36,904 nt of DNA from a virus (lineage: Duplodnaviria; Caudoviricetes). Under the pieces are notes generated by a model, which ran no database searches, was not told the origin of the DNA, and was given only the letters and a program-made list of their open reading frames with translations. The number at the start of each line of letters is the position of its first letter. Position 1 is the stretch's first letter. The stretch spans positions 1 through 36,904 of IMG/VR virus record IMGVR_UViG_3300042347_000200, one strand, 5' to 3'. The position numbers and the translations under genes are program-made. Below, piece by piece: positions 1 through 12,543 of the stretch.

Positions 1-2
1 GG

Positions 3-650
3 TTGACCGAAACAAATAACGGAATCGGGTTTTGGCTTGCTGAATCGCCAAAAGAACCGGCAACGCCGAAGGCGCAAACGAAACCAGAAACAACAGCCTT
101 TGACGCTATGCGCGAATCCCTGCGCGCCGGGGTGCAGGTTGTTACCGCTCCGCAACTGTTCCCGACTCCGCGAGCACTGGCGGAACGTGTCGCAAAGATT
201 GCAGACGTAAAGCCAGGGCATCGGGTACTTGAACCCAGCGCCGGCACTGGTGCGCTATTGGGGGCCATCGGCGGGCGCATGTTTGCCCACAACCCGGAGG
301 CGGGGGCCGTTTCCGCCGTTGAAATAAATCAGTCGTTGGCCGACCGACTCCGCCAAGAATTCCCGCTTACGCATGTCATATGCGACGATTTTCTGAAATG
401 TAACGGCGACCTTGGCGCATTCGACCGAATCGTGATGAATCCTCCTTTTGCCAACGCCGACGACATCAAGCACATAAAGCACGCATTGACCATGCTGAAA
501 CCGGGCGGTCGACTCGTGGCAATCTGTGCCAATGGCCCTCGCCAACGAGAGGCATTATCGCACCTTGGCACATGGGAAGATTTGCCGCCTGGATCGTTTG
601 CTACTTCGGGAACGAATGTCAACGCCGCTCTGCTCGTGGTGCAATCATGA
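3..650 (+). CDS. SAM-dependent DNA methyltransferase (N6-adenine type), probably 5'-truncated by the window edge
   Basis: Motif I VLEPSAGTG, AVEIN and catalytic motif IVMNPPF, followed by LKPGGRLVAI. Confidence 0.8.
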   Translation: MTETNNGIGFWLAESPKEPATPKAQTKPETTAFDAMRESLRAGVQVVTAPQLFPTPRALAERVAKIADVKPGHRVLEPSAGTGALLGAIGGRMFAHNPEAGAVSAVEINQSLADRLRQEFPLTHVICDDFLKCNGDLGAFDRIVMNPPFANADDIKHIKHALTMLKPGGRLVAICANGPRQREALSHLGTWEDLPPGSFATSGTNVNAALLVVQS

Positions 651-793
651 CATCCGCCCGATTCCACCGCCTAGCCCGTTCGATATTCGCCTGCGAGCGC
701 GCCACATCAGACCCGGTTCGCCAAGTCTATTGGGCTAAACACTTTGTCCGGCTGATTAGCCTGGTACGGAATAGCAACGTCTACGGCCAATAG
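647..793 (+). CDS. Small hypothetical protein (48 aa, MTSARFHRLA...)
   Basis: ATG overlaps the upstream stop (ATGA at 647-650). Confidence 0.5.
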   Translation: MTSARFHRLARSIFACERATSDPVRQVYWAKHFVRLISLVRNSNVYGQ

Positions 794-840
794 TTCAATC
801 TCATAGCCGATTCCATGAGTCGGCTATAGGATGCAGACTA
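791..840 (+). promoter_or_regulatory. Intergenic imperfect stem-loop, possible RNase III/processing hairpin
   Basis: ATAGCCGA (803-810) pairs with TCGGCTAT (820-827); imperfect extension to TAGT/ACTA; no U-tract. Confidence 0.4.
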
Positions 841-885
841 GCATCGCATAGCGCCAATATCGGCGCATAACATAGGGGTAACATC

Positions 886-1893
886 ATGAAGACACTAATG
901 AAGCTCGCCAATACCTGCAACAAGAATAGGCTTTCCATGCACGGCCACATTGTCTTTGAAGGCAAAGCAGCACGCGCCACCGATATTGAACTGCACGCGG
1001 TAATCGATTCTGGAGAGTGGGATTTCGATTGCGCCACCGTGGTATCGGTGCAGCAGATCAAGTCGGCAATGGCATTGAACAAAAAGCCTGTATGGTCTGG
1101 AGACACGCTCAACGGTATCAAGCTTGTAAATGCTGGCGATGTTAATGATTGGATACCATTGCCGGCCTTCGATGGCACGCGGATCGAATGCGACGCCTTG
1201 CCGGTCAAACTTTCCCAGGTATTGCCGGCAATGGCCGTTTCGGATATTCGCTACTATCTCAATGGTCTCTGTTTTGACCATAGCGAACGGGCGATCATTG
1301 GTTGTGATGGCCATCGCCTGCACATTGTCAAGAACGCGTATGCTGCCAATGGTCTTACTGGTCAGGCGATTGTCCCCGATGGCGCTTTCAATCTGCTCGG
1401 CGCGAAAAATATCATCCATATGGATTTTTCCGCGACACATTGCCGGATTGGGTATGTTGGCGGGTATCTGATTTGCAAGCTTGTCGACGGAAAGTTTCCC
1501 GACTATTCGCGTGTGTTACCTGCCGATAGCGCACGGTCTAACGTGGTGCCGTTCAATGGCGTGCAAATTGCCGCCGCTAAATCCATTGTCGCCGTGAATA
1601 AGGCTAACAAGGTTAAGTTTGGCACCGCGACAATTAGCACCGATGGCGCATTGTCGGCGTGCGATATAACGGTGCCGTGTTTCGACAAATGGACAATGAC
1701 TCCATTGGCTACTAAGTTCTATGCCAATTCAGGCGAATACTACGATCCGAAACTGTACGGTATCAATGCCGAATATCTGCATGATGCAATGGCGGCTGCG
1801 GATCACGGCACAATCGCCGTTGATGGCGTGAATGATAGCGTGCTGGTATCGAATGGCGATTTCCGTGCCGTGGTTATGCCTTGCCGGATATGA
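886..1893 (+). CDS. DNA polymerase III beta sliding-clamp-like protein (DnaN-like, divergent N-terminus)
   Basis: DIRYYLNG, DGHRL, LVDGKFPDY and C-terminal AVVMPCRI resemble DnaN signatures; GGGG RBS upstream. Confidence 0.75.
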   Translation: MKTLMKLANTCNKNRLSMHGHIVFEGKAARATDIELHAVIDSGEWDFDCATVVSVQQIKSAMALNKKPVWSGDTLNGIKLVNAGDVNDWIPLPAFDGTRIECDALPVKLSQVLPAMAVSDIRYYLNGLCFDHSERAIIGCDGHRLHIVKNAYAANGLTGQAIVPDGAFNLLGAKNIIHMDFSATHCRIGYVGGYLICKLVDGKFPDYSRVLPADSARSNVVPFNGVQIAAAKSIVAVNKANKVKFGTATISTDGALSACDITVPCFDKWTMTPLATKFYANSGEYYDPKLYGINAEYLHDAMAAADHGTIAVDGVNDSVLVSNGDFRAVVMPCRI

Positions 1894-1897
1894 TGCG

Positions 1898-1957
1898 ATG
1901 CTACATTCAATCGGCGCTCTAATCCTAGCCCTTGTGATAATCGTGCTCAGGCCCTAG
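1898..1957 (+). CDS. Putative 19-aa hydrophobic peptide MLHSIGALILALVIIVLRP
   Basis: ATG 4 nt after the upstream stop; single hydrophobic stretch; weak RBS. Confidence 0.3.
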   Translation: MLHSIGALILALVIIVLRP

Positions 1958-1973
1958 AATCCACTCTCCCCTC

Positions 1974-2032
1974 GCCGGTAGCAATTACCGGCTTTGCCCC
2001 CTCGCTGATTACTCGCAGGGGGCTTTTTCTTT
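1974..2032 (+). terminator. Tandem intrinsic terminator-like hairpins at a convergent junction
   Basis: GCCGGTA-GCAAT-TACCGGC-TTT (1974-1995) and GCCCCCT...AGGGGGC-TTTTTCTTT (1996-2032). Confidence 0.6.
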
Positions 2033-2209
2033 GTGGGCATTACAGGCGTTTTGCGCCTCTTGTGCCGTAGGGTATTGCCCGATGGTAGTCCGTGCCGTTT
2101 GCGGGCCGTGTAGGGCCGCGTAGTGGGTAGGATAGCGGATTATGAGATAGTCGTCGGCGCGCATTGTGATCTTTCCCGTTCGCGTCCAGGCTAATTTGTC
2201 AGAATTCAC
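2009..2209 (-). CDS. Hypothetical protein (66 aa)
   Basis: GTG start overlaps the primase 3' end; C-terminal YPTAQEAQNACNAH looks like small phage proteins. Confidence 0.55.
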   Translation of the reverse strand: MNSDKLAWTRTGKITMRADDYLIIRYPTHYAALHGPQTARTTIGQYPTAQEAQNACNAHKEKAPCE

Positions 2210-4915: not shown

Positions 4916-4943
4916 TTGACACGGCGAATGATATGGGTAGAAT
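4916..4943 (+). promoter_or_regulatory. Sigma70-type rightward promoter for the early operon and cassette array
   Basis: TTGACA (4916-4921), 16 bp, TAGAAT (4938-4943). Confidence 0.7.
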
Positions 4944-4983: not shown

Positions 4984-5184
4984 ATGAAAGTCCGCCTGTA
5001 CCTCGTCGAAGAAATCGCCACCAAGAAAACTCGCCTGATCGAAGCCACCAATGCCGCAAGCGCAATGCGCCACGTTGCGGAGTCGCAGTTTAAGTGCGCC
5101 GTCGTTACTAGCACGTCCGAAGCTGCGCGGCTTGTGTCGGGCGGCATCAAGGTGGAGAGTGTGGGGAAGGGTGATGCGGTTTAA
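4984..5184 (+). CDS. Hypothetical phage protein (66 aa, MKVRLYLVEE...)
   Basis: AAGGA RBS; its TAA stop lies within the first attC-like core GTTTAAC. Confidence 0.75.
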   Translation: MKVRLYLVEEIATKKTRLIEATNAASAMRHVAESQFKCAVVTSTSEAARLVSGGIKVESVGKGDAV

Positions 5185-5245
5185 CGCAAAAGCTGTGGGG
5201 CTGGACGCCGCAGGCGGACAGTCCCACACGAGCGACGGGTTGTGC
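5179..5245 (-). repeat. attC-like site 1 (67 bp)
   Basis: GTTTAAC..GCT-GTG-GGG-CTG / CAG-T-CCC-A-CAC-G-AGC..GACGG-GTTGTGC; bulged T, A, G on the + strand 3' arm. Confidence 0.85.
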
Positions 5246-5269
5246 CCCGGCGATTGAACGGAGAACGAA

Positions 5270-5674
5270 ATGCAGCAACATGAACAACTGCGAAAGTACA
5301 ACCGGTGGCGGCGCGGCGACAAGCGCTTAAAGATGTCAGACCCAAAAGAACTCGGCGAACTAATAGACGGCGTGGCCGACCGGCTGGAAGTGCTGGAGCG
5401 CGAACACACGGAGTTCTTCGAGCGCTGGCACGGCGAGAGGCGGAGGCGGGAAAAGCTGGCGCATGACGTTGAGCGCTGCTACCGGATGCTGCTGTCTGAG
5501 CCAGACACGAAGGGCGCTCTATTCAAGGCCGAAAACATCCTGCGCGAGGCGCTGGGCGACCAGAAAGTCGGCTCTGGCGGCACGGCACCCGAGGGGCACA
5601 ACGACAGAGTGGAGGGGCGCGACGCAGCTTCATCGCGGCGCGTCCCTTCGCATGACGGGTTGGAGGGCAAATGA
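5270..5674 (+). CDS. Cassette 1 ORF, hypothetical (134 aa); C-terminus runs through site 2
   Basis: GGAG RBS; stop overlaps the next start (ATGA). Confidence 0.75.
   Translation: MQQHEQLRKYNRWRRGDKRLKMSDPKELGELIDGVADRLEVLEREHTEFFERWHGERRRREKLAHDVERCYRMLLSEPDTKGALFKAENILREALGDQKVGSGGTAPEGHNDRVEGRDAASSRRVPSHDGLEGK
5596..5665 (-). repeat. attC-like site 2 (70 bp)
   Basis: GCACAAC..GTGGAGGGGCGC / GCG-T-CCCTTC-G-CAT-GACGG-GTTGGAG. Confidence 0.85.
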
Positions 5675-6234
5675 CCCAGCGGCAACAAGCGCGGTTTGAA
5701 GGTTTTTCGGTGACGCACTCGAACCCGGCTGACATCGTGATGACAGACAGAGTGGTGGCGCGGAAGATTGTCGAGCACTTCCGTCCGCGCGGTACCGTGC
5801 TTGATCCGTGCCGGGGCGACGGCGCGTTCTTCGACGAAATGCCCGGCGCTGACTGGTGCGAAGTGAGGGAAGGCCGAGACTTTTTTGAGTGGAACACCCA
5901 CGTGGACTGGATTGTGAGCAACCCACCGTTCAGCATTTTTTTCGAGTGGCTGCGGCACAGCATGAGCTTGGCGGATGACATCGTGTATTTGATTCCGCTC
6001 GGGAAGGTTTGGCAGTCAAACAGGGTGCTGCGCATGGTTCATGAGTGGGGCGGGATACGGGAGATTCTGATTGTCGGCAACGGCAGGAAAGAACTCGGGT
6101 TCCCGGTCGGCTTTGCGGTAGGCGCGGTGCATTTTCAGAGGGGGTACCGGGGCGACATGCGCAACGGGTTCTTGCCCTCCAACGCCCAAGTAACCGGCGC
6201 TTCGCCGGCCCTTATGGCGAAGCGTCCGCGTTGA
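5671..6234 (+). CDS. Cassette 2 ORF, small N6-adenine DNA methyltransferase-like protein
   Basis: VLDPCRGDGAF (motif I), DFF and WIVSNPPF (motif IV). Confidence 0.8.
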   Translation: MTQRQQARFEGFSVTHSNPADIVMTDRVVARKIVEHFRPRGTVLDPCRGDGAFFDEMPGADWCEVREGRDFFEWNTHVDWIVSNPPFSIFFEWLRHSMSLADDIVYLIPLGKVWQSNRVLRMVHEWGGIREILIVGNGRKELGFPVGFAVGAVHFQRGYRGDMRNGFLPSNAQVTGASPALMAKRPR

Positions 6235-6248
6235 CTGAAATGTTGGGC
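6177..6248 (-). repeat. attC-like site 3 (72 bp)
   Basis: CTCCAAC..AGT-AAC-CGG-CGCTTCGCC / GGCGAAGCG-T-CCG-C-GTT-G-ACT..GTTGGGC. Confidence 0.9.
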
Positions 6249-6270
6249 GGAATTTTTACGGAGAAATGAC

Positions 6271-6669
6271 ATGAACGGACGAATACTCACCTGCGTTTAT
6301 TGCGGGCACGAATACCCACAGGACACGCCGGCAGCAGGAAGCCAGGTGCTGACGGAGCACATCAAGGTTTGCGAGCGGCACCCGATGCGGAAGGCCGAAG
6401 GCGACATTGCCCTGCTGCGCGGCGCGCTCGTTGGCCTGATCGGCACAGACGGCGAGGATGATCTGCGGCAGATGGAAGCGACGATGCGACTGTTGCCGGC
6501 ACCGGACGCCGACAAGGCGGTTTCGATCAACGCGATTCATGCGCTGCTGGCGACCATGCCGCCCAACGCACGAGGTCAGGCGACTGACGCGGCCTTATCG
6601 CGGCAGGTCGCCTGCACTGACGGGTTGTGCGGCAACGGTAACTACGGAGAGCAAAAAGATGGACGGTGA
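6271..6669 (+). CDS. Cassette 3 ORF, putative Zn-binding protein (CxxC...HxxxC); reads through site 4
   Basis: CVYCG and HIKVCERHP; GGAG RBS. Confidence 0.75.
   Translation: MNGRILTCVYCGHEYPQDTPAAGSQVLTEHIKVCERHPMRKAEGDIALLRGALVGLIGTDGEDDLRQMEATMRLLPAPDADKAVSINAIHALLATMPPNARGQATDAALSRQVACTDGLCGNGNYGEQKDGR
6561..6630 (-). repeat. attC-like site 4 (70 bp)
   Basis: GCCCAAC..GGT-CAGGCGAC-TG / CA-G-GTCGCCTG-C-ACT-GACGG-GTTGTGC; bulge identities differ from the other sites. Confidence 0.8.
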
Positions 6670-6901
6670 TGATATCAAGTGGGACAACAGGAGCATGCCT
6701 CATTACCCGAAGGGCATGCCACTTTGGCAGCGCATGATGTGTCTGCTTGGCTACCACAAAGCCGAGACGCGGCAGACCGCCAAGGGGCACTGCTACGGGT
6801 TCGAGACTGAGGAAGGCAAGCGGAAAGGCGTCTTTGGGCTGCACGACGAGACGCCGATGAAGCTGCGCGACCAGTGCGGCAGATGCGGGACGCTGCTTTG
6901 A
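6659..6901 (+). CDS. Cassette 4 ORF, small Cys/His phage-type protein (80 aa)
   Basis: GGAG RBS; MCLLGYH...CGRCG pattern seen in small prophage proteins. Confidence 0.65.
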   Translation: MDGDDIKWDNRSMPHYPKGMPLWQRMMCLLGYHKAETRQTAKGHCYGFETEEGKRKGVFGLHDETPMKLRDQCGRCGTLL

Positions 6902-6902
6902 C

Positions 6903-6973
6903 GTACAACGCCGACCATGAGGGGCGACAAAAAGCGTAGCTTTTTGGCGTCCCTCTCGATGAACTAGTTGGGC
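6903..6973 (-). repeat. attC-like site 5 (71 bp)
   Basis: GTACAAC..CAT-GAGGGG-CG..CAAAAAGC-GTA-GCTTTTTG..CG-T-CCCTCTC-G-ATG..GTTGGGC. Confidence 0.85.
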
Positions 6974-6998
6974 GGCTGCGCCCGGAGAGGCAACAACG

Positions 6999-7256
6999 AT
7001 GGCAACGATAGCCGAAAAGAACTTTGAGAAAGCCCTGCTTGATCTGGCGGGCGAGGATGTTTCAACCGCCCTGTCTGTGCTGACCGGGTGCTTTGTCAGC
7101 CTGACCCTTGAGGTGCTGCGCCGAAAAGGCCACGTTCCTGACGGCGACATCAAGATCGACGGCGGCGACCAGCGGGACATCACGATTCATCCGCCAAAGA
7201 CGCCCAACGCAAAAGTCAGCGGTGCCGGAACGGCGTCCGCTGGACTGCCGGGTTAG
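6999..7256 (+). CDS. Cassette 5 ORF, hypothetical (85 aa); tail encoded by site 6
   Basis: GAGG RBS; ends PNAKVSGAGTASAGLPG, the translation of the hairpin. Confidence 0.75.
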   Translation: MATIAEKNFEKALLDLAGEDVSTALSVLTGCFVSLTLEVLRRKGHVPDGDIKIDGGDQRDITIHPPKTPNAKVSGAGTASAGLPG

Positions 7257-7258
7257 CC
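7202..7258 (-). repeat. attC-like site 6 (57 bp)
   Basis: GCCCAAC..AGT-CAGCGG-TGCCG-GAA-CGGCG-T-CCGCTG-G-ACT..GTTAGCC. Confidence 0.9.
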
Positions 7259-7271
7259 AACAGGAGGAAAC

Positions 7272-7547
7272 ATGAAACAAGAGATTGCGGAACTGGAACA
7301 AATGCAAAAGCGCCTAGCCGAGATAAAGGCGCTGGCCGAAAAGAATGCAGCGGAACGCGAAGCGGGCGGATGCTACGACGACGAATTGCTGGCCGAGTGC
7401 ATGAGCGTGCTTGAGTATGCGACGTACCATGACGGGCGCTATGGGCAAGACCAAAACTGGGAGAACTTCCAGAGTCCAGCGCAGAAGCTGGTGTTGCGAC
7501 TGGCGAAGCGGCTCGGGCGGAAAGCATACGATGGCTTTGGTGGCTAA
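7272..7547 (+). CDS. Cassette 6 ORF, hypothetical (91 aa)
   Basis: AGGAGG RBS; TAA stop inside core GGCTAAC. Confidence 0.75.
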   Translation: MKQEIAELEQMQKRLAEIKALAEKNAAEREAGGCYDDELLAECMSVLEYATYHDGRYGQDQNWENFQSPAQKLVLRLAKRLGRKAYDGFGG

Positions 7548-7614
7548 CGATCTAGGTAACCGGCGCGACGCCGGCCCTATCGGTGGCGCGTCCGTGTTGA
7601 CCGACGAGTTAGCA
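7542..7614 (-). repeat. attC-like site 7 (73 bp)
   Basis: GGCTAAC..GGT-AAC-CGG-CGCG..CGCG-T-CCG-T-GTT-G-ACC..GTTAGCA. Confidence 0.88.
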
Positions 7615-7631
7615 GGCAAACGGGAAGGGTG

Positions 7632-8336
7632 ATGATGGCTGAGAAAGTGACAATCGGGAATTGCGAACTGTGGCACGGTGACTGCCGCGAAGTGCTGCCG
7701 CTGCTGCCTGATTTTGACTTGCTATTGACAGACCCGCCATATGAGATCGGAACCGCATGGCACGGCGATTTTGCCGGGAAGAACGGGAAGGCCGCAATGT
7801 GGGGAACTGCCCCTGAGTGGGACAAACTTTGCGACGACGGCGTTTCTCTTGGGGTTCAGAAGGCGCAGGAGGCGGTTGTTTGGGGTGGGCATTTGTACGC
7901 ACTTCCTCAACGCTCGCGCTGGCTTTCTTGGGACAAGTGCCAGACTTTCAGCAGCGGCGACTTTGAACTCGCATGGACGAACGGAAGCGGGGCAACGCGG
8001 GTTTTTCGGATGTCTCGGATTGACGCATACCAAAACAGCGGCGAAGGGAAAGAACACCCGACGCAGAAGCCCACGGCCTTGATGGAATGGTGCCTGAGCT
8101 TGCACCCAAAGGCTCGGACGGTTTGTGACCCATTCATGGGCAGCGGAACAACTGGCGTTGCCTGCGCCCGGATGGGGTTGCAGTTCGTCGGCATAGAGCG
8201 TGAGCGCAAATACTTCGAGATTGCCTGCCGCCGAATAGAGCAAGCCTACGCACAGCCTCGGCTGTTCGAGGATACGAAAGTCGGCGCTGGCGAGACGGCG
8301 GTGCAGGGCGACATGCTTTTGCCTGCCAACGTCTGA
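7632..8336 (+). CDS. Cassette 7 ORF, N4-C/N6-A DNA methyltransferase (beta-class motif order)
   Basis: LWHGDC, LTDPPY, HPTQKP, DPFMGSGTTG and FVGIE; start may be 7629, 7632 or 7635. Confidence 0.92.
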   Translation: MMAEKVTIGNCELWHGDCREVLPLLPDFDLLLTDPPYEIGTAWHGDFAGKNGKAAMWGTAPEWDKLCDDGVSLGVQKAQEAVVWGGHLYALPQRSRWLSWDKCQTFSSGDFELAWTNGSGATRVFRMSRIDAYQNSGEGKEHPTQKPTALMEWCLSLHPKARTVCDPFMGSGTTGVACARMGLQFVGIERERKYFEIACRRIEQAYAQPRLFEDTKVGAGETAVQGDMLLPANV

Positions 8337-8391
8337 AATAACCGGGACACGCGGCATCATCGCGTGGCTCCGGTTGATTGACGGGTTAGCC
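8324..8391 (-). repeat. attC-like site 8 (68 bp)
   Basis: TGCCAAC..AAT-AACCGG..CACGCG/CGCGTG..T-CCGGTT-G-ATT-GACGG-GTTAGCC. Confidence 0.88.
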
Positions 8392-8432
8392 GGCTCCCGT
8401 TAAAGGCCGGCACAAGTTGGAGATAAAACCCA

Positions 8433-8594
8433 ATGAAAGCCACAATCGAAGCCGCAATAAAGAACCTGACCGAAAAGGCCCAAGCCGCAAAGCCTGACGA
8501 CGTGCTGAAGTACTCGCAGGCCGCGCTGAACTTGGCGCACACCGAAGCCACGCTGGAAGCAACGCGGCGTGAGAACGAGAAACAGAAGACGTAA
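8433..8594 (+). CDS. Cassette 8 ORF, 53-aa helical protein (MKATIEAAIKNLTEKA...), not in the supplied ORF track
   Basis: GGAG RBS; fills most of the cassette. Confidence 0.7.
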   Translation: MKATIEAAIKNLTEKAQAAKPDDVLKYSQAALNLAHTEATLEATRRENEKQKT

Positions 8595-8625
8595 TGAGCG
8601 GCCGTCACTGGTCAAGGCTGGTGAC

Positions 8626-8688
8626 GGCTAACGCTGGCGTAACCGGCGCTGAGCTTGCGAAGCGTCCGCGTTGACGCAAATGTTAGGC
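8626..8688 (-). repeat. attC-like site 9 (63 bp)
   Basis: GGCTAAC..GCGT-AAC-CGG-CGCT..AGCG-T-CCG-C-GTT-G-ACGC..GTTAGGC. Confidence 0.88.
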
Positions 8689-8706
8689 AACGATTTCGGA
8701 GGAAAC

Positions 8707-8886
8707 ATGGACAACTTTAACGACCTTTACCCGAAACAACGAACTGGTAAAGAGTGCAAGAAAACGGATTGCGACAGGCATAAGAATTATGTTGCATGGC
8801 AGTGCGGCACTTCAAGCCTTAGCTTCTGCATTGAGTGCAAACATGCTCACGTTTCGCAGTACAAGCGCAAGGTGTCTAACGGCTGA
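8707..8886 (+). CDS. Cassette 9 ORF, 59-aa Cys-rich protein
   Basis: GGAGG RBS; five Cys including CIEC. Confidence 0.7.
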   Translation: MDNFNDLYPKQRTGKECKKTDCDRHKNYVAWQCGTSSLSFCIECKHAHVSQYKRKVSNG

Positions 8887-8941
8887 AATAACCGGCGTGC
8901 CGCGCTTTTGCGGCACGTCCGGGTTGATTGATTAGTTCGGC
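8874..8941 (-). repeat. attC-like site 10 (68 bp)
   Basis: GTCTAAC..AAT-AAC-CGG-CGTGCCGC/GCGGCACG-T-CCG-G-GTT-G-ATT..GTTCGGC. Confidence 0.9.
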
Positions 8942-8976
8942 GTCTTGCCGGAGCCGACTTTTGAAAAGGATAAGCG

Positions 8977-9225
8977 ATGGACATTGAACAAGCGTGCCGT
9001 GCGTCTCGGCGCAACAGGGCCAAGGTGCAGGCAGCGAAGGAATGCGGCTGCTATTTCTGTCTCCGATCGTTCCCGTCAACGGATGTTGTTGATTGGGCCG
9101 ACCTGGACGAAATGACGGCGCTTTGCCCGCACTGTGGGATTGACTCGGTGTTGCCATCTGTGACGGACAAGGAAGCACTGATAGCAGCAAACGAACGGTG
9201 GTTCTGTGAGACGCCGAACGTCTGA
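8977..9225 (+). CDS. Cassette 10 ORF, small Zn-ribbon protein (82 aa)
   Basis: CGCYFCL...ALCPHCGIDSV; AAGGA RBS. Confidence 0.8.
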   Translation: MDIEQACRASRRNRAKVQAAKECGCYFCLRSFPSTDVVDWADLDEMTALCPHCGIDSVLPSVTDKEALIAANERWFCETPNV

Positions 9226-9279
9226 ATTCACCGGCCTGCGCGGCTTTTCGCGCAGGTCCGGTGGAATGACGGGTTAGCC
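9213..9279 (-). repeat. attC-like site 11 (67 bp)
   Basis: - strand reads GGCTAAC-CCGTC-ATTCCACCGGACCTGCGCGAAAAGCCGCGCAGGCCGGTGAAT-TCAGAC-GTTCGGC, a canonical top-strand attC layout. Confidence 0.92.
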
Positions 9280-9322
9280 GTGCGCCCGATGAAGGCACGG
9301 CAACACAACAAAGGAAACGACC

Positions 9323-9547
9323 ATGAATGAAGGATACGCAATGGAAATGGCAGCGAAGCAAGCGGGCGTACTTGGTGGCTACGCGAAAGACCCGATGCAG
9401 CAGATGACGTGCGGCGAGAATTTGGAGCGCAAGATTGCCGAGCAGAAGGAGCGGCTGGCGATGTTGGAAAACGCGATGGAGGAAATGAAAGCCACCGGCC
9501 TTTACAACGTGAAGATTTCCACCCTGCGCGACACGATGTCATGGTGA
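9323..9547 (+). CDS. Cassette 11 ORF, hypothetical coiled-coil protein (74 aa)
   Basis: AAGGA RBS; stop 1 nt before the terminal core. Confidence 0.75.
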   Translation: MNEGYAMEMAAKQAGVLGGYAKDPMQQMTCGENLERKIAEQKERLAMLENAMEEMKATGLYNVKISTLRDTMSW

Positions 9548-9548
9548 C

Positions 9549-9567
9549 GGCTAACGTTAAGTAGCCC
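9549..9567 (-). other. Terminal half-site (attI-like simple site or truncated attC)
   Basis: GGCTAAC-GTTAA-GTAGCCC; the core matches the site 11 end (ACGGCTAAC/GTTAGCCGT) but no hairpin body follows. Confidence 0.65.
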
Positions 9568-12314: not shown

Positions 12315-12543
12315 CGCAATCAGCAGACAAGCCGCGCAAACGCTTGAGCGCAAACTGATGTCCTCGCCAGTGCCATTGGCAGTGTTCGTGACGTATGGCG
12401 GCAGTTGGGTGGCGACTAAAGTGACAACGGCGCTATTCAGGACGCAACTCGAAAAGACGCCGAACTCGTTGATGGGCGTATACACAATTGATGCAAACAT
12501 GGTCGACTTGGCCGATGACTTTTTTAACAGTGGGGTGCGTTAA
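12307..12543 (+). CDS. Hypothetical protein (78 aa, MTNAISRQ...)
   Basis: Overlaps both neighbours; TAATG coupling to ssb. Confidence 0.6.
   Translation: MTNAISRQAAQTLERKLMSSPVPLAVFVTYGGSWVATKVTTALFRTQLEKTPNSLMGVYTIDANMVDLADDFFNSGVR

Follow-up and report, generated by a model that had tools for sequence, protein, structure and literature searches.

An array of eleven attC units with bottom-strand genes in a phage without an integrase

Eleven short genes follow one another in the window, i.e. the whole stretch of 36,904 nucleotides analysed here (freshwater phage record IMGVR_UViG_3300042347_000200), and each is preceded by a hairpin with AAC and GTT ends. What are these hairpins, to which gene does each belong, and what could move them in a phage that encodes no integrase?

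Matched ends and attC geometry

An earlier note on this DNA had claimed that the GTT end of each site matches the AAC end of the next site across the gene, and took this as the footprint of circular intermediates. All 11 pairs are present, with the places and scores claimed. Over positions 4–10 the cognate ends match at 67/77 positions against a permutation mean of 41.9, and none of 1,000,000 permutations of the ends scored as high. The two cores of one hairpin are mostly unmatched, as was also claimed: at positions 4–7, the rest of the 7-nt core, 41/44 positions match between cognate ends vs 23/44 within one hairpin. Eight of the 11 R′ cores break GTTRRRY and three fit it, in agreement with the same note. 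The cassette ends are not all unique, the 3′ end being identical in units 8 and 11; over positions 4–12 five units have their cognate end as the only best partner, five have a tie, and for one another end scores better. A second copy of the unit 10 end motif (12455–12465) sits within a gene and is not an attC site. When joined between AA and C, which is the correct cut, a circularised unit re-forms a paired R box from its own two ends; on folding, two of the 11 sites do no better circular than linear. Of the circular-intermediate footprint, the attC-type end signature is found, and the eight contig runs, in which rare forms are dropped, contain no go-back joint matching any unit. Matched ends are a known signature of attC cassettes and, taken alone, ordinary.

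The folded sites have the geometry of attC. Such sites are defined by extrahelical G16 and T23/24, 6 bp apart, and only AAC is conserved in all of them (PMC5027507). Here, a strict detector finds an L box whose extrahelical G (16) and T (23/24) stand 6 bp from each other, on the arm opposite to AAC, in 10/11 sites, and arm alignment finds it in 11/11. The detector placed ten sites on the minus strand and none on the plus strand, and returned none in 10 simulated windows. Specifically, the bulges lie on the plus-strand GTT arm in all 11 sites, and the minus strand has a nearly invariant C16 and an invariant A24, which are the complements of bottom-strand G16 and T23/24 (PMC5027507). The AAC and GTT triplets are conserved, R′ and R″ are complementary in the circular form, and the lengths (57–73 nt) fall inside the attC range of 57–141 nt; beyond the triplet GTTRRRY is not followed, this consensus being typical rather than universal. 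Structure is kept while sequence varies: changes on both sides occur in 16/21 pairs of a structure derived from these same 16 sequences. Rfam gave no match at gathering score in the window. The array is also a CALIN as defined in PMC4889954, i.e. an attC cluster on one strand with spacing below 4 kb and no intI nearby.

Since the extrahelical bases put the attC top strand on minus while all 11 genes lie on plus, each unit consists of a hairpin and its downstream gene, bounded between AA and C (Table 1). The array opens with a hairpin and closes without one. The canonical polarity, in which the gene is on the top strand and attC at the gene 3′ end, is seen in none of the units. Seven of the 11 cassette proteins have no PHROGs family and ten have no Pfam hit; atlas look-ups of units 1 and 3 returned unnamed clusters only, and orphan methyltransferases account for two units.

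Table 1 Features of the array and its borders (window coordinates)
Feature	Position	Strand	Remarks
Sigma-70-type promoter-like site	4916..4943	+	11/12 consensus match only; distal end, points into array
Divergent promoter-like site	4956-4928		Beside the 4916..4943 site; consensus match only
66-aa phage gene before array	4984..5184	+	Not a cassette; stop overlaps fixed left junction AAC (5183-5185)
Unit 1	5186..5602	+	attC hairpin, leader, ORF from 5270; L285 and L004 100% (417 nt), L352 92% (at attI)
~24-nt Rhodocyclales genomic repeat	5564..5587	+	Near unit 1 3′ end
Unit 2	5603..6183	+	Hairpin, ORF from 5671, DNA methyltransferase (phrog_799)
Unit 3	6184..6567	+	Hairpin, ORF from 6271; L401 100% (384 nt), immediately ahead of attI and intI
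Unit 4	6568..6909	+	Hairpin, ORF 6659-6901; sole site missed by strict detector
Unit 5	6910..7208	+	Hairpin, ORF from 6999 (phrog_18086, unknown-function)
Unit 6	7209..7548	+	Hairpin, ORF 7272-7547
Unit 7	7549..8330	+	Hairpin, ORF from 7632, N6/N4 DNA methyltransferase (PF01555)
~24-nt Rhodocyclales genomic repeat	8277..8300	+	Start of unit 7 shared tail
Unit 8	8331..8632	+	Hairpin, ORF 8433-8594
Unit 9	8633..8880	+	Hairpin, ORF from 8707, Cys-rich; 86% across whole unit in L065
Unit 10	8881..9219	+	Hairpin, ORF from 8977 (phrog_30788, unknown-function); L285 100% (339 nt), immediately ahead of attI and intI
~24-nt Rhodocyclales genomic repeat	8938..8961	-	Reverse copy, unit 10 leader
Unit 11	9220..9555	+	Hairpin, ORF 9323-9547; skipped exactly by joint in runs X5, X7, X13
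attI-like array end	9553..9564	-	AAC without hairpin after; no intI behind

Turnover of the units and source of the integrase

Cassette units differ between near-identical phages and are gained or lost in wild populations. The flanks of phage L001 are 99% identical to those of the window (24/3073 and 87/6427 bases differ), and between the same two AAC points, where both breaks fall, it carries a wholly different array sharing no cassette gene. The left junction AAC is found in L001 and also in L278, in each with different hairpins after it. At the other end, a joint from 9216 to 9553, with 5 shared letters, skips the 336 nt of unit 11 beside the attI-like site in three of eight runs; unit 11 is likely the newest of the array. 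The units move as discrete pieces cut in AAC. Another joint, from 6564 to 7546 (units 4–6 skipped; X15, X18, X19, X20), was not counted as a deletion here, the X20 contig being L401-like upstream. A scan of one metagenome returned two short contigs. Shared cassettes were searched again on more loci, as the first locus set held too few phage pairs. The hairpin is kept with the downstream gene in 6/8 pairs and with the upstream gene in 2/15, the pairs not being independent; this linkage rule is thus broken by 2/8 and 2/15 pairs, and one hairpin stands in front of different genes in the window, in L004 and in L006.

The integrase is likely supplied by another phage or the host. PF00589 has no match in this phage record, which is 100% complete, so an intI in cis, as in a complete integron, is lacking. 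Units 1, 3 and 10 have 100% identical copies, with the hairpin in front, in the IntI-encoding phages L285 (TIGR02249, 482 bits) and L401. Run X7 contains both this phage and the L352-type IntI phage. IntI was above the cut-off in only 3/50 array-bearing viral records searched, and 46/50, many of them fragments, had no match at E 1e-30. The array, attI and intI all lie on one strand in five phage records, and among 80 IntI loci no upstream site lies on the intI strand, as an inverted integrase would require. The attI-like end of the array is identical over 12/12 nt to the junction before intI in L191 and over 10 nt to that in L279, and it coincides with the unit polymorphism. A consensus scan found no promoter-like site at this end, from which the Pc of a complete integron would read into the array, the best site being at the opposite end.

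Together, these data strongly favour the view that 11 attC sites with genes on the attC bottom strand have outer arms that are split, giving the matched ends, and that an integron integrase of another phage or of the host, acting in trans, likely excises the units, bounded between AA and C, circularises them and inserts them. New units would enter at the attI-like site (9553), and the array would be transcribed from the far-end promoter towards attI; RNA runs X19 and X20, both from one sample, cover parts of the array in a way that bears on neither transcription nor its strand.

Alternatives and the length of the end pairing

Ordinary polarity, with each hairpin belonging to the upstream gene and cut between G and TT on the plus strand, is barely credible: the 2/15 pairs in which a hairpin stays downstream of the same gene speak for it, but the bulges are on the wrong arm, the array starts with a hairpin and ends without one, and it is already contradicted by the unit 11 joint, which takes away the upstream hairpin, and by the identical units in L285 and L401. 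Action on the hairpins by another recombinase, either XerC/D of the host or a short tyrosine recombinase of a phage, is very improbable. The lack of an integrase in this record and in most array-bearing records would suit it, yet identical units stand at attI before full IntI genes, and the bulge geometry is that read by IntI. Somewhat less improbable, although still quite doubtful, is that the sites are attC by descent and, in phages lacking an integrase, are now shuffled mainly by the phage RecE/RecT-like system through homology of similar hairpins and cassette tails. Exonuclease VIII and RecT-like genes lie about 0.9–1.5 kb downstream of the array, L004 combines window-type and L006-type arrays in a mosaic, the same hairpin is found with unrelated genes, and methyltransferase cassettes are mosaic within one chassis; against this, the breaks are located at AAC and involve no more than 5 shared letters, and among the loose ends listed at least nine rows are at AAC junctions and at least one at a GTT junction.

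The earlier note had further suggested that the pairing past the 7-bp core may bear on how cassettes are created; one such process would be the copying of an end into an inverted repeat. The extra pairing is real, since positions 8–12 match at 38/55 vs a permutation mean of 24.7 (0/200,000 permutations as high), and its fall to background by position 13–14 could come from a fixed-length process. However, canonical bacterial cassettes show the same profile (3.57 of 5 vs 1.84, n=30). The pairing is therefore generic, reaching about 12–13 nt in bacterial cassettes likewise, and is weak evidence on cassette creation; unrelated genes moreover share ends, so that many ends, as in cassettes of one chassis, are inherited rather than newly made. 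A creation footprint is accordingly unlikely, if the least unlikely of these alternatives. The same length would be expected under selection for a folded integrase arm. The arm of a Xer-type recombinase is roughly 11 bp, and under the reading we prefer, an integrase supplied in trans, pairing to 12–13 nt may be kept because the integrase would need duplex over the full length of its binding arm when the unit is circular.

Viral polarity and shared chassis

Integrons are regarded as devices of bacteria, in which strand selectivity ensures that cassettes insert in sense orientation behind Pc. The reversed polarity dominates viral contigs and not bacterial genomes. By a ribosome-binding-site heuristic, which leaves many units uncalled, 142 viral units comprise 85 bottom, 3 top and 54 uncalled or both, vs 5 bottom, 30 top and 58 remaining among 93 bacterial units. 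Longest-ORF calling (66 bottom, 37 top, 44 ambiguous) was too noisy, mis-called window units, and was replaced; purine skew is negative in 141/142 viral units but also in 63/93 bacterial ones, and skew-labelled profiles were left unused. In the IntI phage loci, four units are called top; they come from L364 and L366, of which L366 appears mis-called. We found no description of reversed cassette-gene polarity in print. Such a reversal might leave phage cassettes unexpressed in host integrons, and those of the host unexpressed in the phage. Host arrays hold defence genes, and if the reversal separates the two pools, phage arrays would be a candidate list of anti-defence genes facing them, to which this array would add its two orphan methyltransferases.

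Cassette tails are common to unrelated genes and start at an abundant Rhodocyclales genomic repeat of ~24 nt; matches to the 3′ tail of unit 7 occur in 56 viral stretches. The repeat resembles the DNA uptake sequences of Neisseriaceae and Pasteurellaceae in distribution, being dispersed over both strands of some genomes in hundreds of copies, and differs from them in sequence and family. Besides the mosaic methyltransferase cassettes of one chassis, there is a unit of 71 nt without an ORF, and one methyltransferase gene occurs both inside and outside a cassette. Tentatively, and with the odds against it, phages of Rhodocyclales-type hosts could run a mirror-image integron economy, in which a phage IntI lineage would serve a pool of reversed cassettes common to unrelated phages, those without an integrase such as the present one included, and new cassettes would arise when genes are swapped into an existing chassis with the abundant, uptake-sequence-like host repeat as 3′ crossover and the ribosome-binding site as 5′ crossover. 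How cassettes form de novo is described as mostly unknown (PMC5371416). If true, gene swapping into chassis would be a testable route of cassette genesis without reverse transcription, for which the shared chassis, the ORF-less unit and the methyltransferase found in and outside a cassette offer a concrete system.

Relation to known systems

The array resembles integron cassettes and their attC sites (Nivina et al. 2016, PMC5027507; ACID, PMC2674596) in its R and L boxes, 5–6 nt spacers, AAC cut, extrahelical G and T 6 bp apart, length of 57–73 nt and definition in the circular form. It differs from them (PMC5027507) in that all 11 genes lie on the bottom strand with the hairpin preceding the gene, most cores break GTTRRRY, and expression would start at the end far from attI. 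The fixed left junction, at the stop codon of an ordinary phage gene, may be what is left of a target like the attG secondary sites (bioRxiv 10.1101/2022.09.11.507474). In content the array is like the phage CALINs of Qi et al. (2023, PMC9892861), which are attC clusters without intI that carry orphan DNA methyltransferases; among 50,697 phage records, the array has a DNA match only in the phage MW202573 of that study. In MW202573, 4 sites lie on minus beneath annotated plus-strand genes, while TJE1 is canonical; reversed genes go unmentioned in the text portions of Qi et al. considered. Unlike those CALINs, with 2–4 sites in the figure legends and supplement rows, the present array has 11 sites, an attI-like end and turnover in natural populations. 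In the Treponema integrons with an inverted integrase (Cury et al. 2016, PMC4889954; PMC13323075), intI and the cassette genes are likewise transcribed in the same direction. There, however, intI is on the attC strand (PMC4889954), whereas the IntI-bearing phage loci keep the usual site–intI orientation at every upstream site and have the genes flipped: the same integron chemistry serves genes of the opposite strand in many phages, and identical cassettes pass from one phage to others unrelated to it.

Polarity of the sites and setting of the array

In attC sites, two extrahelical bases of the recombinogenic bottom strand, a G (16) and a T (23/24), are spaced by 6 bp and sit on the arm opposite AAC (PMC5027507). 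All 11 sites of the window place these extrahelical bulges on the plus-strand GTT arm, and a detector for canonical top-strand geometry recovered 10 of the 11 on the minus strand, none on the plus strand and none in simulated windows (0/10). The 11 cassette genes, four of which have PHROG matches, likewise lie on the plus strand. The plus strand is therefore the attC bottom strand, and each unit consists of a hairpin, a leader and a gene, with its 3' limit between the AA and the C of AAC. A covariance model built from the window sites found no further strong sites in the window. Additionally, 7 of the 11 cassette ORFs end at a stop codon supplied by the following unit, and their C-termini therefore vary with position; the protein of unit 1 has 134 aa in the window vs 112 aa in the viral locus L285.

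The record is rated 100% complete and contains genes for terminase, portal, major head protein, primase-helicase, exonuclease VIII, a RecT-like protein and SSB; no tyrosine recombinase was found in the whole 36,904-base window. The public DNA runs best holding this phage are lake water metagenomes. The position of the array is listed below together with a second variable region and a relative that has no array.

Locations of features in the window and in compared loci
Feature	Location	Remark
Array	between primase and exonuclease genes	behind strong promoter-like site 4916-4943
Second variable region	window 1-2100	methyltransferase, sliding-clamp-like gene; differs among relatives; attC sites absent
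Relative without array between primase and exonuclease	L002 8700-10060	92% in exonuclease VIII
ORFs with stop codon from next unit	window 5270-9225	units 1, 2, 3, 5, 7, 9, 10
Shared tail of unit 7 (leader also shared in L285, L311)	window 7608-8330; L285 1481-1987; L311, L302, L312, L292, L294	
~24-nt repeat	window 5564, 8277, 8938-8961; L153; genomes G001, G005	
Unit 7 methyltransferase gene outside any cassette	L004 8646-9340; L006 6361-7039	L004 copy 94% identical
Published phage CALIN MW202573	L284 2069-3738	4 sites on minus, genes on plus

Natural variants and the source of the integrase

Natural variants confirm that the unit is a hairpin with its downstream gene, bounded at AAC. The closely related locus L001 shows 24 differences from the window over 3073 bases of the left flank and 87 over 6427 bases of the right flank; its array of 2091 nt is unlike that of the window, with likeness limited to the hairpins and both breaks at AAC. 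Among 339 sites, the hairpin had stayed with its downstream gene in 6 of 8 pairs, against 2 of 15 for the gene upstream (Fisher p 0.006, the pairs not being independent). In sequencing runs X5, X7 and X13, a joint links 9216 with 9553 and leaves out precisely unit 11 with its upstream hairpin; it is read from two sides (the shorter 30-43 nt) between which the letters are not known. Run X1, from which the window may derive, contains unit 11. No circle junctions were seen in the contigs of 8 runs. Loci L079 and L141 contain tandem cassettes that are nearly identical (89-97% alike), possibly through amplification.

The array ends in an AAC without a hairpin, and the 12 nt at this point are identical to the junction before intI in a Rhodocyclaceae genome. 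Locus L285 holds units 1 and 10, and locus L401 unit 3, all at 100% identity and with the hairpin in front; unit 10 in the former and unit 3 in the latter adjoin an attI-like junction, followed by intI. The L285 IntI scores 482 bits on TIGR02249, and an IntI above the cut-off was present in 3 of the 50 array-bearing viral records searched. In five phage records, cassette genes, attI and intI all lie on one strand. Four phage IntIs used as queries retrieved 301 related stretches, of which 80 were kept; of the units upstream of intI in these, 40 were called bottom, 4 top and 3 both, with 26 uncalled. A quick IntI tree, whose rows were picked by likeness to phage IntI and include only 6 bacterial ones, has an all-viral group of 48 rows (SH-aLRT 100) with 15 of the 17 reversed rows. 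Run X7 also contains ends of an IntI-bearing phage of the L352 type alongside the window phage. We infer that the window units are recombined by an integrase acting in trans. L285 and L352 represent one temperate phage, which has 3 units in the former and 1 in the latter between identical junctions before intI.

Matching ends and the making of new cassettes

The earlier note had claimed that the GTT end of each site matches the AAC end of the next across the ORF; all 11 pairs are present with the scores it gave, and the cognate pairing (67/77 at positions 4-10) was equalled by none of 1,000,000 permutations of shuffled ends. That each cassette has its own matching ends holds in that the pairs exist, but they are less unique than this implies, the cognate end being the sole best in 5 of 11 cases, tied in 5 and beaten in 1. 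A cassette's own attC is established to be the one present in its circular form (PMC2674596). Past the core, at positions 8-12, cognate ends match at 38/55 against a permutation mean of 24.7 (0/200,000 as high). The same positions match at 3.57 of 5 vs 1.84 in canonical bacterial units (n=30) and at 2.98 vs 1.82 in reversed viral units (n=85), from at least 140 bacterial loci (4/64 parts of bacterial genomes; 80 with flanks) and at least 130 viral loci (29/64 parts of viral contigs; 80 with full flanks), all found with one hairpin pattern; in both the signal is back at background by position 13-14. Pairing beyond the core is thus generic, common to canonical bacterial and reversed viral units; the matching of the ends is genuine and unremarkable. 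On the simplest reading, selection would favour extra pairing that keeps the circular site double-stranded over the whole integrase arm, which is roughly 11 bp long in Xer-type recombinases. We found no discussion of pairing outside the R box in the accessible part of PMC7439510.

A different feature may bear on how cassettes arise. A total of 56 viral stretches match the 3' tail of unit 7, which runs from a ~24-nt repeat to AAC and ends 58 ORFs (49 distinct), among them 37 distinct methyltransferases and several unrelated ORFs; likeness among the tails begins at the repeat. Both leader and tail of the unit 7 type also accompany an Ead/Ea22-like gene, present in L285 and L311, and viral loci L314, L327 and L332 carry an ORF-less 71-nt unit of leader, repeat and tail only. 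Outside any cassette, the unit 7 methyltransferase gene lies between two ordinary phage genes with attC absent, and its likeness to unit 7 stops just after the repeat. These patterns would fit a route in which new cassettes arise when the gene of an existing chassis is exchanged at the repeat. All 4 window hits to the repeat lie inside the array, and its density in phage arrays is 4 times that in flanks (48 in 146 kb vs 34 in 414 kb). Of five genomes tested, two are rich in the repeat: a Sulfuritalea MAG has 399 copies in 4.9 Mb and a Rhodocyclaceae MAG has 222 in 1.7 Mb. The other three have 3-9 copies each; the repeat hints at the host group.

Reversed genes and relation to known systems

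When ORFs were called by their ribosome-binding sites, the viral set of 142 units had 85 bottom and 3 top, and the bacterial set of 93 had 30 top and 5 bottom; both sets were gathered with one pattern and lean towards Betaproteobacteria. The sole bacterial locus with mostly reversed units, L206 of a Propionivibrio MAG, supplies 4 of the 5 bacterial bottom calls and is possibly a prophage.

The reversal might separate phage and host cassettes: a reversed cassette at a host attI would face Pc and stay silent, and one from the host, once inserted in the phage array, would run against the promoter of the phage. Alternatively, genes co-oriented with replication would make the bottom strand the lagging-strand template, an arrangement reported to raise excision (PMC5371416); this second possibility would depend on the direction of phage replication.

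PMC9892861 has already reported phage CALINs (attC clusters without intI) and the action of IntI1 on attC sites of phages. In the open literature searched, we found neither a description of phage cassettes that are reversed throughout nor one of the ~24-nt repeat; the figures and Supplementary File 1 of PMC9892861 may show gene orientation. Of two published phage CALINs checked, MW202573 is reversed like the window and TJE1 is canonical. The system is an integrase-less phage integron array with an attI-like end, reversed genes and visible turnover, and is a variant of known integrons.
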